Source: Desulfuromonadales bacterium
GTDB taxonomy: Bacteria > Desulfobacterota > Desulfuromonadia > Desulfuromonadales > SZUA-540
Direction: 5' to 3'
NCBI GenBank assembly: GCA_033549025.1
Contig: JAWSUS010000001.1
Span: 75,590-139,589 of the forward strand
Length of the DNA stretch: 64,000 nucleotides
Position numbers and translations under genes: made by a program. How positions within the stretch are numbered: the first letter of the stretch is position 1; each line of letters opens with the position of its first letter. Below are positions 51,937 through 64,000 of this stretch, piece after piece. A model generated the notes under the pieces. The model was given only the letters and a program-made list of their open reading frames with translations. It ran no database searches and was not told the DNA's origin.

Positions 51937-53271
51937 TTAGCGCCGCCCGATGCCGCTGTATTCAAAACCGGCCTTTTTCACCACCACCGGTTCGTACTGG
52001 TTGCGGCCATCAAAGATAATGGCCTGCTTCATGGCCCGCTTCATGGCGTTGAAATCGGGGTGGCGGAAGGGCTTCCATTCCGTCACTAGCACCAGGGCAT
52101 CCACTTCTGCCAAGGCTTCGTACTGGTTTTTCACCAGCTCAAGCCGGCCCTTTTCAAACCAGTCGGCCGGCAGCACCTTGCGGGCCATGTCCATGGCCAC
52201 GGGGTCATAGGCTTTCACCTTGGCGCCGGCGCCGATGAGTTCATGCAGCAACACCTCGGCGGGAGCCTCCCGCATGTCGTCGGTCTCGGGCTTGAAGGCC
52301 AGGCCCCACAGGCCAAAGGTCAGGTGCGAGAGATCGCTGCCGAAACGCTCGGTGATCTTATCGAACAGCACATGCTTCTGCGCCTCGTTGCGGCTGTGAA
52401 CCGACCGCAGCACCATGGAATCGAAGTCGACCTCTTCCGCCATGCGGATCAGGGCGCGGACATCCTTGGGAAAGCAGGAACCGCCATAGCCGCAGCCGGG
52501 ATAGATGAAAGAATAACCGATGCGACTGTCAGAGCCGATCCCTCGCCGCACATTTTCCACATCGACTCCGAAGGCATCGCACAGGCGGGAGATTTCGTTG
52601 ATGAATGAGATCTTGGTGGCCAGCATGGCGTTGGCGGCATATTTGGTCATTTCGGCGTCACGCACCCCCATGAACAGGGTGCGTTCGTGATTGCGGTTAA
52701 AAGGCGCATAGAGCTCCCGCAACATTTCACTGGCCTGCTCGCCGTCCGTCCCGATAATAATGCGGTCGGGACGCATGAAATCGGCCACGGCCGAGCCTTC
52801 TTTGAGAAACTCGGGGTTACTGGCCACATCAAAGGGGATCGACACCCCGCGCACCTCCAGAGTCTCCCGGATGGCGGCAGCGACCTTGTCCGCCGTTCCC
52901 ACCGGCACCGTCGACTTGTCCACCACCACGCAATAGTCCTTCATATGGCGGCCGATCTCACGAGCGACGGCCAGCACATACTGCAGATCAGCCGAACCGT
53001 CCTCACCGGGAGGCGTGCCCACGGCGATAAAATAGACGGAAGAATCCGCCATGGCCTCGGCCAACTCGGTAGTGAACTGCAAACGCCCGTCACGAACGTT
53101 GCTCTCCACCAGATCGTCTAATCCCGGCTCATAAATGGGAATGATCCCCTGCCTCAAACGCTCAATCTTGTTTCTATCGACATCGACACAGGTGACCGTA
53201 TTGCCCATCTCAGCAAAACAGGCCCCGGTCACCAGCCCGACATAGCCGGTGCCAACCACGGTGATATGCAT
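51937..53271 (-). CDS. ugd: UDP-glucose 6-dehydrogenase
   Basis: [46 protein letters not shown]. Confidence 0.95.
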
Positions 53272-53295
53272 GATCTATATCCTTTCCGAAAATTT

Positions 53296-53323
53296 AAAAA
53301 GGGCAGAAGAAAATCTGCCCTTT
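53296..53323 (-). terminator. Terminator-like hairpin directly upstream of ugd
   Basis: On minus: AAAGGGCAGA-TTTTCT-TCTGCCC-TTTTT, preceded by a weak TTGGGT-N18-TAAGAA. Confidence 0.55.
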
Positions 53324-53371
53324 CTTACCACATTTCACTATAAAAACCCAAGACTTTGCTGAAAACCTTTT

Positions 53372-53480
53372 GCCACGAATAAGTTCAGATAAAAGCAAAT
53401 AAAATCATAAATCCATAAATGATTGTAGCCAAAGACAAAGGTTTTGCTTTCATTTGCAGTTATTTGCCGTCATTCGTGGC
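53372..53480. repeat. Inverted-repeat element A (~110 bp, arms of three 10-bp periodic units, GCCAC...GTGGC ends)
   Basis: Left arm gccacgaat|aagttcagat|aaaagcaaat; right arm (revcomp) gccacgaat|gacggcaaat|aactgcaaat. Complementarity extends to aaaacc...ggtttt (53362-53493). Confidence 0.8.
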
Positions 53481-54923
53481 TAAAAAGGGTTTTGCCTCCC
53501 CTAGCCAGACTTGCAGCGAAGGCAACGCTTCCTGCAGCTTCTCTTTCAGAGCCTGCCGGGCCGGTTCATCGCCATGCACCAGCACGACCTCGCGAGGAGG
53601 CCGCCGCATCCCGCGCACGAAACGCACCAGGTTCCCCTGATCGGCATGGGCCGAATAGCCGCTGATGGTATGCACCCGGGCACGGATGTCATGCCGCTGG
53701 CCGTCCAGAACCACGTAGCCATGGCCGGGGCCATATTGCTGAATGGCGCGGCCCGGCGTACCCTGGGCCTGATAGCCGACGAAAAGGACATCTGTACGCT
53801 CATCCCCGAGCAGCGCCTTGAGGTAATTGACAATGCGGCCGCCGGCGCACATGCCGCTGGCGGCGATCACAACACAGGGCCGAGCCGACTTTTTCAGGTA
53901 AGCGACCGTATGCAGATGATCTTCGTGGCTGTCGACGGTGGTCAGCTGCTCGAAGCAGAGGGGATGACGCCCCTGCGACAGACGCTTTTTCGCCTCCTGA
54001 TCCCAGTACGGTTTGAGTTGACGGTAGGCTTCAGTAAAGCGGGAGGCCAGCGGAGAATCGACGATGATCTCCAGCTCCTCCCAGGGGAGACCGCGAGCGG
54101 CATAGTCCTGCCGATGGCGATAGATCAGCTCTTCCAGCTCGTAAAGGAGTTCCTGAGTGCGCCCGATGCTGAAGGCCGGCACCAGAATAACGCCCCGATC
54201 CCGCAGGGCCAGATCGATCACTATCTTGAGGCGATCCCGCCGCCCGCGCCGGTCATCGTGCAGCCGGTCGCCGTAAGTGCTCTCCAATACAAGAATATCG
54301 GCACGATCAGGCGCTTTGGGGGCCGGCAGCAGCGGGGTATAGGGGGCACCGAGGTCACCGGAAAAGACCAGGCGTACAGGCACCGGGGACTTCGCAGGAC
54401 GGGCCGAACACTCCACATAGGCCGAGCCGAGGATGTGTCCCGCCGGCCGGAAGCGCACCTTGAGCGCGCTGGCGGTGCCGGTATCGACCTCGGTCCACTG
54501 TCCGCAAGGCACCGTCACAATCTGTTGCTTGAGCCGTCTGGCAAAGAGCTCCAACAGACGCCGGTCGCGGGTGAAACCCACTTTTACGGCATCTTCCAGT
54601 ACCAGCGGCAAGAGCAGGGCCGAAGGCTCCGTACACAGAATCGGCCCTTCAAAGCCGGCCGCCAGCAGATGGGGAATGCGGCCAACATGATCGATGTGCA
54701 CGTGGGTTACCACCAGGGCCCGAATGTGCCCGATGGGAAAGTCAATCTCCTGCCCATCCCGGCCAGAAGTCTGAAAAGGAGCGTCATCCCCCTGAAACAG
54801 GCCACAGTCCACCAGAATCGCCGCCTTGTCATCCAAGCGCAGCTCATGACAGGAGCCCGTTACACCGTTGGCAGCACCGTGATGAAGAATATGCGGATAA
54901 GTAGAATTCTCACGAGCTGCCAT
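53460..54923 (-). CDS. Metallo-beta-lactamase/beta-CASP family nuclease (Vibrio rjg-like)
   Basis: HHGAANGVTGSCHEL, VDCGLFQG, THVHIDHVG, GHILGS, FSGDLG, ESTYG, PAFSIGRTQE, YSAHAD, LVHG. Confidence 0.9.
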   Translation of the reverse strand: MAARENSTYPHILHHGAANGVTGSCHELRLDDKAAILVDCGLFQGDDAPFQTSGRDGQEIDFPIGHIRALVVTHVHIDHVGRIPHLLAAGFEGPILCTEPSALLLPLVLEDAVKVGFTRDRRLLELFARRLKQQIVTVPCGQWTEVDTGTASALKVRFRPAGHILGSAYVECSARPAKSPVPVRLVFSGDLGAPYTPLLPAPKAPDRADILVLESTYGDRLHDDRRGRRDRLKIVIDLALRDRGVILVPAFSIGRTQELLYELEELIYRHRQDYAARGLPWEELEIIVDSPLASRFTEAYRQLKPYWDQEAKKRLSQGRHPLCFEQLTTVDSHEDHLHTVAYLKKSARPCVVIAASGMCAGGRIVNYLKALLGDERTDVLFVGYQAQGTPGRAIQQYGPGHGYVVLDGQRHDIRARVHTISGYSAHADQGNLVRFVRGMRRPPREVVLVHGDEPARQALKEKLQEALPSLQVWLGEAKPFLATNDGK

Positions 54924-54956
54924 TCACCACCCTTTTCAATCGACAAATATTAAAAT

Positions 54957-55068
54957 CCACCACCAAGACACGGGAACACCAAGGAAAACCGCGAATCGAT
55001 GAAGAGACGGGTTATTGTCTGCCACACCCAAACCAGCCTTTCTTGGTGCCTTGGTGTCTTTGTGGTGG
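54957..55068. repeat. Inverted-repeat element B (112 bp, arms of three 8-bp periodic units, CCAC...GTGG ends)
   Basis: Left arm ccac|caccaaga|cacgggaa|caccaagg; right arm (revcomp) ccac|cacaaaga|caccaagg|caccaaga. Confidence 0.85.
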
Positions 55069-55080
55069 GCAAAAAAGACT

Positions 55081-56493
55081 TCAGCAACTCCCCTTGCGGG
55101 AGAAGACGACGGCAATCGTCTTGAATAGAATGCGGATGTCCAGCCACAGGCTCCAGTGGTCGATATAGTGCAGATCCAGGCGGACAATCTCGTTAAAATC
55201 TTCGATGGTGCTACGACCGCTGACCTGCCACATGCCGGTGATCCCTGGCTTGATACTGATGCGCCGTCTCTGCCAGTTTTCGTACTGCTCCACCTCGGCC
55301 GGCGTCGGCGGCCTGGTCCCTACCAGGCTCATATCGCCCTTGAGCACATTCCAGAACTGCGGCAGCTCATCGAGGCTGGTCTTGCGCAGGAACCTGCCGA
55401 CCCGAGTGACGCGTGGGTCGTTTTTCATCTTGAACATGGCCCCCTTCATCTCGTTCCGGGCCATCAGTCCCTCTTTGCGCTCCTCGGCATCGATATGCAT
55501 AGAGCGGAATTTCCAGCAATTGAACAGACGATTTCCCACCCTTACCCTCGGTTGGCTGAACAGCAGGGGACCAGGCGAATCGAGTTTGATCGCCAAGGCA
55601 ACAAAGGGGAAGATGAGACCCGTAAACGCCAGCCCGGCCAGCGCCCCAGTCACATCCAGTACCCGTTTGAGAAAAAGTTGATGGGCATCGAAGGCCTTGG
55701 GATAATAGGTGAGTATGGGCAGTTCATTGTGAAACAGGCTGATCTCCTTGCGGTAAAAAGACGCTTCAAAGAAATCCATCACCATTCTCACCGTCACGCC
55801 CAACTCTTCCAGATCCTGAAGGTAGGGTTCGGCGCTCACCACATAATCCTTGGGGATGCAGAACACCGCCTCGTCAACCTGGATATCCTTGCAAATGGCT
55901 ATCAAGTCGTCGGCTCGCCCGAGAACACGATGGCCTTCAACCGACTCCTGTAAAGTACCCGGTGTCACCTGGACAAAACCGACTATCTCCAATCCCCAGT
56001 CTTTATGGCTTTCGATGAGTTGGCAGAAACGGCGGGCTTTTTCCTGCGTCCCCACCACCAGAATGTGGCGGACGTTGAGCTTGCGTCGCCGCAAAGAGCC
56101 GAGGATAACTTTGACCAGTATTTTTTGGAGAACGAACAATAAAAAAGAAAGAAGCAGAAAAAGTAGGTAGAGACCACGGCTATATTTGTCCCGATCCAGA
56201 AAATAGATCAGGGAGGCAACCACTATGCCTCCGGCCAAGTGTACACTGGCAAGGCGGGTGATCATATCAAAGAGGGAAAGGCGCCGAATCGACTGGTAAA
56301 ACCCGTGTTTGGTCAGCAGATAAAACCACACCGGAGAGACCACCAAAAACACCCAGAGATACTCGATGGGTTTGTGAAGCCCGATGCCGATCTGGCCCCG
56401 GATGATATAAGCGATGGCGAAAGCCAAACCCAGCGTGAGGGAGTCGGTCAACATGGTAAGACGCGTAAACAATCGCGCCTGCTGTCTAAGCAT
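55081..56493 (-). CDS. Undecaprenyl-phosphate glycosyl-1-phosphate transferase (WcaJ/CpsE type, initiating transferase)
   Basis: N-terminal TM helices, KRVLD, KFRSM, DPRVTRVGRFLRKTSLDELPQFWNVLKGDMSLVG, KPGITGMWQ. Confidence 0.94.
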   Translation of the reverse strand: MLRQQARLFTRLTMLTDSLTLGLAFAIAYIIRGQIGIGLHKPIEYLWVFLVVSPVWFYLLTKHGFYQSIRRLSLFDMITRLASVHLAGGIVVASLIYFLDRDKYSRGLYLLFLLLSFLLFVLQKILVKVILGSLRRRKLNVRHILVVGTQEKARRFCQLIESHKDWGLEIVGFVQVTPGTLQESVEGHRVLGRADDLIAICKDIQVDEAVFCIPKDYVVSAEPYLQDLEELGVTVRMVMDFFEASFYRKEISLFHNELPILTYYPKAFDAHQLFLKRVLDVTGALAGLAFTGLIFPFVALAIKLDSPGPLLFSQPRVRVGNRLFNCWKFRSMHIDAEERKEGLMARNEMKGAMFKMKNDPRVTRVGRFLRKTSLDELPQFWNVLKGDMSLVGTRPPTPAEVEQYENWQRRRISIKPGITGMWQVSGRSTIEDFNEIVRLDLHYIDHWSLWLDIRILFKTIAVVFSRKGSC

Positions 56494-61743: not shown

Positions 61744-64000
61744 TCAAACGCTACGCTTTGCATATTGGTACTCCATCAAAGCATCAGGTTCTTTTTGATC
61801 TGTATCAATAAGTATGTATGATTTGGCGAAATTACTTACAGAAATCACTCTTTCAAGTGCATGTGCAAGTGTCCCATCAATTTGTCCAGCTTCTGGCTCA
61901 AAATCAGAATCACTTAGCTCCAAATTCAAAAGTGGAAGCAACGCATCTGTACGAGCAAAAAACATAGTGCCAGCAACAAAGTTTAAAGAGATCGTCATTT
62001 CTAGGGATTGGCCGAGTCTACGTGCAAGACGCTCAACAGTTTTGGCGTTCGACCCAAAATAGAATTCCATTGGAACAACGTGACCGGATGGACCAATTAG
62101 ACCCACACGGTTATTTTCATTAAATATACTTATGGCCCGCTGCACAGCATCATTGCTCAGTAATTTACCGTAAAGATCATCTCTCCAATAATCACCATCT
62201 TCCCTGTGGAATGATTTCTTAGTGTGAATTTTCAAAAAATAAGCATATCCCTCGGCAACAATTTTCCTAAAAGTTTTTAGAAAAGGAAGCACATCGCGTC
62301 CACGGTTTTCAACTGGTGCAAGGCTGTAATGAAAACCACTGGAAGACAGGACATCCTCAATCCGTCCATATAAATCATGAGGGGTAGTAACAAAAAGCTT
62401 AAATGGAATATGGACTCCACTCAAACGTTTAATTATATCAATAAAAACGTCTTCGTAAAAAGCATGTATGATAATTGCTATTGATTTACTGTCTGGAAGC
62501 ATACAGTGTGTAGTTCTCACTTGAGCCATCCGCGTCGCCTCTAAATAAGCATATCCATTGCGCTGGTCAGGCTCTAAGTGCGCCCCCTCCGCCCATTCAT
62601 TCCAAGCATTAATAAAAACAACCCGTTCGTCAGCATTAACAAAACGGCGCTGTGTATCAATTATTGCGTTATGTAGCCACTCTTGATACCCTTGAGGCGT
62701 ATTATTAAGGAAAATGTTTCCTTTGTTCTTTTTACGAGCTGTATTATCCCAACCAGGATTTACGCTTCGAAAAAGCTTATATCCCGGATCATTGTAGTTT
62801 TTACTACGTTCAACAAACACTCGCCAATCGTAAACCTCACCCAAAAAATCACCATCAGCTTTCCTCTTTACACTATTTGTGATATTTGGTGGTGCAGAAT
62901 TATTAGGTGGAAACTCGATAGCTGCGTCAAATCCGTACGTTGAAGGATCCATATTTTCAAAAGATTGTGTGTACGCGAGGTAAATCTCACCTATCTCGTT
63001 CTCCAAGCACCATCCACGCCAACGCTTTACAGTCTCCCTAGCAGCGGGCAAAAGACTTGGCCGGTAGACAAGAAGGAGAGGTTTGCCGTCTATCCTGATA
63101 TAGCGATCATCTTTCATGTAACGTGTAACATGAGCAATGAATTCGATGTCATCTTCAGGTGAATGTTTTTGCGAAATAAGAATGTCACTTTCCAGCCCAT
63201 CCCATCGTCGGCTCCAATTTTCATTTGCCCAGCACAAGCAAAACGGCAAATCTAAACTTCTATCATGAAGGTAGTTCTCGATTGGGGCTTCCAGAAGCCG
63301 CGTTCCTCCAAACCAGTAAAAATAGAAACAAAAGCCACTAATTCCATAGAGCTTTGCTAACTCAACCTGACGACGTTGTACCAGAGGTTCAAGCAGATTG
63401 TAATAACCAAGCTCACCAGGAATATGAGGTTGATAGTGCCCCACAAACTGTGGCTGAGCCGGTTGTACGTTGGTCCATTCAGTAAACCCTTCTCCCCACC
63501 ATTCATCGTTCTCCGGAATAGGATGAAATTGCGGCAGATAAAAGCAAATCAATTTTACAGGTTTATCCTCTAGAGGTGTCGCTTGAAGCAGAGGAACATA
63601 GCCTTCAGCAGACTGAACAGTTTCGGGGATTAAAGGATTCTGTGCATTATCAACCACTAAACTTTGATGGTCGATCCAATTTTTGTAAGCTACCATGTGA
63701 CGGAACATAAAGGGGGCATGAGTAAATAGTATGCCCTTTAGCTTCTCCTTTGCCTGAGTAGGGATTGGGAATGAGTGCCATATTTTTTTTACAACTGTTA
63801 TGATTTGGTTCCACAAAGAACACTTTACCGCCCTTGTCAAAACACGGCGAAAATTACGCAACGGTGCAGTCAAAGTCCACGATTTACTGTTTAGAACTTC
63901 TTTGAACTTACATTTGAGGGCAATGATCTGACCGTCTCGCTCAGCAACCAAATGGTGGAGGTTCTCAAGCTGGCCGTCTCGCTCGGCAACTAGATGGTGG
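61744..64000 (-). CDS. Multidomain polysaccharide protein: coiled coil + WbsX/GH99-like + RgpF (rhamnan synthesis F)-like; 5' end outside the window
   Basis: Frame stays open to the window edge (HHLVAERDGQLENLHHLVAERDGQ...). SKSWTLTAPLR motif; WbsX motifs; then IIIHAFY, ENRGRDVLPF, KIHTKKS, FVAGTMF, DGTLAHALER. Confidence 0.85.
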   Translation of the reverse strand, partial: HHLVAERDGQLENLHHLVAERDGQIIALKCKFKEVLNSKSWTLTAPLRNFRRVLTRAVKCSLWNQIITVVKKIWHSFPIPTQAKEKLKGILFTHAPFMFRHMVAYKNWIDHQSLVVDNAQNPLIPETVQSAEGYVPLLQATPLEDKPVKLICFYLPQFHPIPENDEWWGEGFTEWTNVQPAQPQFVGHYQPHIPGELGYYNLLEPLVQRRQVELAKLYGISGFCFYFYWFGGTRLLEAPIENYLHDRSLDLPFCLCWANENWSRRWDGLESDILISQKHSPEDDIEFIAHVTRYMKDDRYIRIDGKPLLLVYRPSLLPAARETVKRWRGWCLENEIGEIYLAYTQSFENMDPSTYGFDAAIEFPPNNSAPPNITNSVKRKADGDFLGEVYDWRVFVERSKNYNDPGYKLFRSVNPGWDNTARKKNKGNIFLNNTPQGYQEWLHNAIIDTQRRFVNADERVVFINAWNEWAEGAHLEPDQRNGYAYLEATRMAQVRTTHCMLPDSKSIAIIIHAFYEDVFIDIIKRLSGVHIPFKLFVTTPHDLYGRIEDVLSSSGFHYSLAPVENRGRDVLPFLKTFRKIVAEGYAYFLKIHTKKSFHREDGDYWRDDLYGKLLSNDAVQRAISIFNENNRVGLIGPSGHVVPMEFYFGSNAKTVERLARRLGQSLEMTISLNFVAGTMFFARTDALLPLLNLELSDSDFEPEAGQIDGTLAHALERVISVSNFAKSYILIDTDQKEPDALMEYQYAKRSV
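63916..64000 (-). repeat. 42-bp tandem repeat encoding a 14-aa double heptad (at least 2 units, truncated by the window edge)
   Basis: CACCATCTAGTTGCCGAGCGAGACGGCCAGCTTGAGAACCTC / CACCATTTGGTTGCTGAGCGAGACGGTCAGATCATTGCCCTC. Confidence 0.85.

Follow-up and report, generated by a model that had tools for sequence, protein, structure and literature searches.

The two periodic inverted repeats that flank a beta-CASP gene in the 64-kb window (i.e., the whole stretch of DNA analyzed, 64,000 nucleotides) are, judging from arms compared across genomes, gene-less members of a dispersed repeat family, the full-length form of which carries a GxxExxY gene (PF13366/TIGR04256). Arms of the type found in element B enclose such a gene between hldE and gmhB in two sister genomes, G001 (as one open frame) and G002 (in two pieces), so that A and B are best seen as empty versions of a gene-carrying element. 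The genome comparisons presented below suggest that this element is likely mobile, and that it does not represent an integron-type cassette system.

Structurally, no other local inverted repeat in 52800-55700 is as long as A or B, whose arms measure 43 nt at 74% and 30 nt at 77%, respectively, in a local inverted-repeat search (Table 1). Read directly, each arm holds three units and the termini are CCAC...GTGG as first described; the period of A was 10/10 in a motif-free genome scan, and that of B 8 bp by direct reading. Folding as single-stranded DNA gave z-scores of -4.94 and -3.74 for A (0 and 1 of 200 shuffles as good) and of -2.22 and -3.01 for B (3 and 0 of 200 shuffles). The outer stem of A reaches ~53366-53488, beyond the limits given in Table 1, and its loop contains a short inner helix. 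Among the 603 candidates that the motif-free detector found genome-wide, A came joint 4th and B joint 9th, and a profile learned from relatives placed A at the top with a score of 71.8 (against maxima of 42.2, 40.8, and 43.0 in complement and shuffle controls). This profile missed B because the 8-bp class escapes it, so that all B-type counts given here rest on BLAST and a covariance model, whose matches include other arm classes and count both strands. No element other than A and B passed detection within the window.

Table 1. Features at the ugd-sugar transferase junction (positions in the 64-kb window).
Feature	Position	Strand	Remark
UDP-glucose dehydrogenase gene (ugd)	51937..53271	-	conserved downstream neighbor
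Predicted sigma-70 promoter for ugd	53337..53365	-	consensus match only
Segment missing from G001	53362..55046	.	replaced there by 72 other bases
Element A	53372..53480	.	gene-less periodic inverted-repeat element, 10-bp-period class
beta-CASP metallo-beta-lactamase-fold gene, 487 aa	53460..54923	-	variable cargo between A and B
Element B	54957..55068	.	gene-less periodic inverted-repeat element, 8-bp-period class
Priming sugar transferase gene (PF02397)	55081..56493	-	upstream neighbor, common to G001

The inverted-repeat search, the folding and the genome scan thus agree with the first-pass annotation on the two ~110-bp inverted repeats and their coordinates, and also on its view that unlike sequences share one design (termini, three units, 10- and 8-bp periods): the local alignment of A with B scores 9, compared to a shuffled mean of 7.5 and maximum of 13, i.e., a likeness no better than shuffled. 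Given this level of likeness, homologous recombination between the present-day A and B was rejected. That the elements are intergenic held for B, which lies 12 bp beyond the sugar-transferase stop, and not for A, which is not purely intergenic, since its right arm encodes the end of the beta-CASP ORF (the last six codons and the stop). A terminator scan called no site at A or B, as the same annotation had maintained, and a terminator reading of the two elements was dropped. Rfam returned only two hits in 52800-55700, both far below the gathering score (E 0.81 and 1). Separately, a short GC-rich hairpin at 53296-53325, between the predicted promoter and the ugd start, is kept with changes in G001 and G002, and is not among the sites of the terminator scan. 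At the other extremity, a WbsX/RgpF glycosyltransferase ORF running off the window end contains a tandem peptide repeat near its start (63951-64000).

The genome of the window (G000; 100% complete, 78 contigs) carries further copies besides A and B, and the A class recurs both on its contig C18 (66219-66327) and upstream of the beta-CASP gene in G002. Thirteen of 17 hand-listed copies sit in three polysaccharide loci, and the other four adjoin an endonuclease V gene, flgI, a GGDEF gene and an RlmKL-type methyltransferase gene. The genome contains B-type copies but no B-armed GxxExxY gene. An association between periodic palindromes and GxxExxY genes, mentioned in the first-pass annotation, is borne out well beyond this genome: all three GxxExxY genes of G000 lie in or beside such arms, the full form being ordered as left arm, gene, right arm, and the upstream and downstream flanks matched each other in inverted orientation at 105 of the 140 GxxExxY loci having both flanks, as opposed to 12/135 same-locus controls and 113/600 cross-locus pairs (flanks of the other 35 loci fell below the match threshold). 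The full set comprised 141 loci (3 from G000, 29 from relatives, 29 from the phylum, and the best 80 of 268 from GTDB genomes of many phyla), among which a gene in the loop was the commonest layout (54/141), a unit that recurs across many phyla. On a quick tree of 137 of these 141 proteins (four short or broken rows were dropped), arm class changed 26 times, vs. 62.3 when shuffled, with 0/200 shuffles as low; a clustering of this kind shows co-inheritance of arm and protein, not recognition of one by the other.

The GxxExxY protein itself has the attributes of a nuclease. Its structure model (pLDDT 94) adopts a restriction-endonuclease-like fold, and residues D75, E85, and K87 are invariant in 103 GxxExxY proteins. 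The best match in a fold search reached Z 8.5 (rmsd 3.2, 99 aligned), compared to Z 8.0 for Cas4 (rmsd 3.4, 100 aligned) and Z 6.7 for Hjc (rmsd 3.3, 87 aligned), and since Uma2-like, type IIG, Cas4, and Hjc chains score close together, no single subfamily stands out. As modeled, the protein is thus a member of the PD-(D/E)XK fold with its predicted active site intact. Sequence and profile searches of solved structures with GxxExxY yielded no relative, and a search of the Atlas retrieved the same family only. In the published record, PF13366/TIGR04256 was listed in 2012 as being of unknown function with multiple transfers (PMC3424549), and GxxExxY is mentioned as a Cas4-like gene beside a reverse transcriptase (10.1101/2021.01.26.428298). 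No description of a GxxExxY-inverted-repeat pairing was found in the part of the open-access literature that was searched (main texts only).

The beta-CASP gene is missing from G001 at the focal junction, and the bases found there instead make up most of one short B-like copy, to which the right end of B is orthologous. The right flank of this copy matches that of B, and its left flank matches that of the first B-type copy of G002. With the gene gone and one B-like copy in its place, the breakpoint falls at the elements, as a check suggested earlier for the sugar transferase-ugd interval had anticipated. G002 keeps the gene (88% identical) in another arrangement: three B-type copies stand between it and ugd, and an A-type copy lies at its opposite end, next to a different gene (PF02719) instead of the PF02397 sugar transferase. 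Homology with G002 is limited to 53499-54899, the loop of A and both ends of the beta-CASP gene being different. The left breakpoint relative to both sister genomes (after 53361) lies inside the -35 hexamer of the predicted ugd promoter, so that the arrival of A altered this predicted hexamer relative to G001 and G002 and may affect ugd expression. Across these three genomes, the simplest history would be that the beta-CASP gene lay ancestrally between two B-type copies, that G001 lost the gene by recombination between these two copies, and that the ugd-side B copy was replaced by A in G000, in which case the present A/B pair would be a by-product and not a matched cassette.

Variation at this junction was also seen in public sequencing runs. 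In one strain contig (from a DNA run), the beta-CASP gene still neighbors the sugar transferase and 66 nt take the place of a 180-bp stretch that holds B; a second DNA run contains the B arms with a 24-nt loop as well as a joint suggesting a duplicated A-type arm, and a contig from a third spans A almost unchanged. Among the joints listed for the contigs of 8 public runs, none represented an excised circle or an empty site, and no cleavage or excision was observed, contigs being prone to drop rare variants.

Elsewhere, filled and empty versions of the same site could be compared directly. Between Tex and PHP, G001 contains a filled element of ~540 bp where G000, G002 and G003 have an empty site, and this insertion replaced ~11 bp, including the Tex stop, with no duplication. 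Filled and empty orthologous sites also occur at hldE-gmhB and rmlA-rmlC. An empty B-type copy of 139 bp lies between two convergent stops in G001 and is not present in G000, a comparison that revealed a possible 3-bp duplication for this one empty-copy insertion. Over 42 filled elements, target-site duplication showed no excess (3.21 nt vs. 3.22 nt in controls), and element ends were ragged by 10-25 bp. One junction copy of G002 matches a copy on contig C4 of G000 at 92%, loop included, and the tandem arrays of G002 comprise three or four copies, with ~160 bp of the adjacent gene end repeated in one of these arrays. Insertion polymorphism, tandem amplification, and copying of a whole empty unit between loci are thereby shown at the level of sequence comparison. 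A MazE-MazF pair (L096:682-1260) lies between two A-type copies in G001 only, G000 and G002 having one copy, and the element appears to mark spots where neighboring genes are gained or lost.

Three further observations concern the surroundings of these copies. A separate repeat of ~230 bp (L077:2045-2300; C18:66345-66600 in G000) adjoins an A-type copy; it is duplicated together with this copy in G001, and several partial copies exist in G003. Near-identical rmlA-arm-GxxExxY junctions, in which the arm provides the rmlA stop, are found in G002 (L060) and in G011 (L374), which belong to different families, and this resemblance suggests that the block was transferred horizontally. Finally, the hldE-gmhB site of G000 is occupied by a different repeat with a 7-bp period, which belongs to a second class of inverted micro-repeat arms (L078:8250-8335 on contig C1 of G000; L081:3652-4077 in G002), present as well within gmd and manC (L299) and at C4:112791 in G000. 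Intergenic sites that carry this class in one sister genome carry the GxxExxY class in another. The 7-bp class is also found inside coding regions, and flanks a PF05635 four-helix-bundle gene in G002, which substantiates the link to such genes mentioned in the first-pass annotation (PF05635 had no match in the G000 genome).

The first-pass annotation had proposed an undescribed system that moves single-gene cassettes of surface-glycan loci, and in this reading A and B would be attC-like sites of a site-specific machinery working through circles. Several observations lean that way: the junction of G001 has one copy and no gene, MazEF sits between two like copies, and the order in G000 could formally arise if a circle of A plus the beta-CASP gene had inserted at the left end of B. 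In addition, an element was found by strict detection within 400 bp (<=400 bp) of 5/15 close beta-CASP homologs, a set that includes the focal locus and one duplicate, vs. 1/66 distant homologs, and several of the close homologs have no such repeats nearby. We nonetheless judge this reading very unlikely. The integron integrase model TIGR02249 gave only 9 partial matches in G000, the best at 92 bits against a cut-off of 265, and a comparison by eye with the attC core-site consensus showed central triplets only, at the base of the A outer stem, and none at B. Gene and site do not form a fixed moving unit either, since element types are swapped around the gene in G002, where the A loop and both gene ends differ, and a strain retains the gene without a full-length B. 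The imprecise element ends likewise speak against site-specific exchange, as does the distribution of the family among relatives, which hold ~20-30 copies genome-wide, many of them among housekeeping genes. A clear glycan neighbor was found at only 6 of the relatives' 29 GxxExxY loci (53 proteins scanned), indicating that the system is not glycan-specific. The expected enrichment in glycan loci holds in G000, among its hand-listed copies.

Co-occurrence with a nuclease family, another check proposed at the outset, came out positively. Among 31 genomes, the B-type covariance model had matches in 23, and elements and PF13366 were both present in 20, both absent in 5, with the gene only in 3 and elements only in 3 (Fisher p = 0.013, kin not being independent). 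The exceptions include G009 (99% complete, 130 contigs), in which 39 two-strand matches correspond to ~20 near-uniform B-type copies, without any GxxExxY match in that genome; 17 of the copies lie among housekeeping genes in the 11 stretches examined. This B-type expansion looks recent (L350-L360), with a near-constant loop of ~28 nt, and includes the purM-purN region, which has no copy in the 64-kb window. G009 lends weight to the view that the hairpins are MITEs moved by another transposase or a host recombinase, with GxxExxY as a passenger inside, and so do G021 (one contig) and G010, which contain many B-type copies and whose readable GxxExxY genes bear arm types related to, but distinct from, the B type (a contig end truncates one of the G010 genes). 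We consider the passenger scenario unlikely, because the catalytic residues of GxxExxY are invariant, the gene-in-loop unit is found in many phyla with an arm class that tracks the protein tree, and neither the six Y1-transposase hits (PF01797) nor the three tyrosine-recombinase loci examined in G000 have arms nearby, the gene flanked here being PF13366. The earlier suggestion of an enzyme encoded elsewhere we count as supported.

Filled elements begin at a median of 13 nt past the upstream stop (39/42 measurable), and 31 of these 39 start within 22 nt of the stop codon, a proportion uncontrolled for short operon spacers. This placement just past stops in operons would suit RNA hairpins of polycistronic mRNAs that process or stabilize the transcript or act like intervening sequences, possibly cut by GxxExxY or beta-CASP and kept by host selection; tRNA-splicing endonucleases also share the GxxExxY fold at Z 5.3-5.8, and empty copies display a weak G-U lean on the transcribed strand (45 vs. 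29, p = 0.08; 20 vs. 6 copies, which are not independent). Such an RNA role seems quite unlikely to us, as filled elements have no wobble bias (69 G-U vs. 75 A-C mismatches on the transcribed strand, n = 50) and copies also occur between convergent genes. Complementarity was, moreover, not register-specific, with an arm likeness of 6.17 in register vs. 6.01 of 8 off register for filled elements (n = 40, p = 0.13) and of 6.33 vs. 6.19 for empty copies (n = 24, p = 0.70), and none of 18 predicted pairs in 13 B-type copies underwent compensatory changes (0/18). An RNA-library contig spans A intact, which is weak evidence since DNA may have been its source (5-10% of the words were present in the RNA runs). 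Exact base pairing is thus not under selection, and the palindromy follows from two inverted arrays of one motif. Mismatches gather at three positions of the unit, and the arms look like inverted arrays of putative protein-binding motifs.

Compared to known systems, the family resembles several and coincides with none. Prokaryotic MITEs possess terminal inverted repeats, a coding full-length form with short non-coding derivatives, and insertion polymorphism. The A/B family similarly has terminal inverted repeats in common with a coding full-length element (the B-type arms of G001 and G002), coding and non-coding forms, and polymorphism between close genomes, but no consistent target-site duplication, ends that are ragged by 10-25 bp, and no known transposase family. 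Integron attC sites are imperfect hairpins next to variable genes; so are the present elements, which adjoin variable genes including a toxin-antitoxin pair, but they come without IntI in the genome, without a core-site consensus, and without gene and site forming a fixed unit. In 23S rRNA intervening sequences, complementary arms enclose a PF05635 four-helix-bundle ORF. Such a looped-out ORF is also the layout here, and 7-bp-period arms flank PF05635 in G002, whereas the elements lie outside rRNA, give no sign of RNA excision, and encode a different protein fold. As extragenic, multi-copy inverted doublets with a spacer, the elements also match the organization of REPINs, except that a short imperfect palindrome with a tag in each unit was not found, the arms being arrays of three direct units. 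Like the A/B family, REPIN/RAYT systems and TIRtrons are dispersed outside genes and form tandem clusters, with two inverted units that enclose a spacer of variable sequence, and the same repeats also border a single enzyme gene (PMC3337134, PMC3733652). The partner enzyme is an HUH tyrosine transposase in REPIN/RAYT vs. a PD-(D/E)XK protein here, the arm is a tagged palindrome vs. a purine-rich direct-repeat array, and the gene here, unlike in REPIN/RAYT, usually lies inside one element, tight against the arms, with many arm classes per genome (PMC3337134, PMC3733652). The likening to attC or REP/MITE sequences made at the outset is thus retained for its REP/MITE-like dispersal and abandoned for attC (no integron integrase, types swapped). 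A REPIN/MITE-like element, set apart by its enzyme, its unit structure and the lack of a consistent target-site duplication, would be the closest reading. As for the beta-CASP gene, it resembles in position the Vibrio gene rjg, which belongs to the metallo-beta-lactamase family and borders a surface-polysaccharide cluster (PMC12374273); the gene is variable between sister species here vs. a fixed border in Vibrio.

Our best overall explanation, to which we give an even chance of being right, is that of a dispersed element whose two forms, filled and empty, are both mobilized by the GxxExxY nuclease and serve as recombination hotspots. At either end of the element, the GxxExxY protein would bind DNA at the three phased motif units and would nick or cut near the outer ends, after which host repair or recombination would copy the element together with 10-25 bp of variable flank. 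Copying with a variable flank would account for the imprecise ends, the lack of a consistent target-site duplication and the local duplications, and genes caught between two like copies would become deletable or duplicable. It is tempting to go further and speculate, although we find this rather doubtful, that GxxExxY represents the founding enzyme of a class of prokaryotic mobile elements not described so far, in which a stand-alone PD-(D/E)XK nuclease of 130 residues and phased motif arrays replace DDE, HUH, and tyrosine/serine enzymes, and whose gene-less copies would serve as portable sites of breakage and recombination, shuffling cargo (beta-CASP, MazEF) and so diversifying surface-glycan loci across many phyla.

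What is added here are comparisons of filled and empty orthologous sites, a loss of cargo that leaves one copy behind, tests of base pairing, and a counter-example genome, G009. These comparisons provide PF13366/TIGR04256 with a testable substrate, namely its own inverted motif arrays. If GxxExxY does mobilize these arms, it would bring a new chemistry to bacterial mobile DNA and would be a candidate for generating variation in surface-glycan loci of poorly studied phyla.
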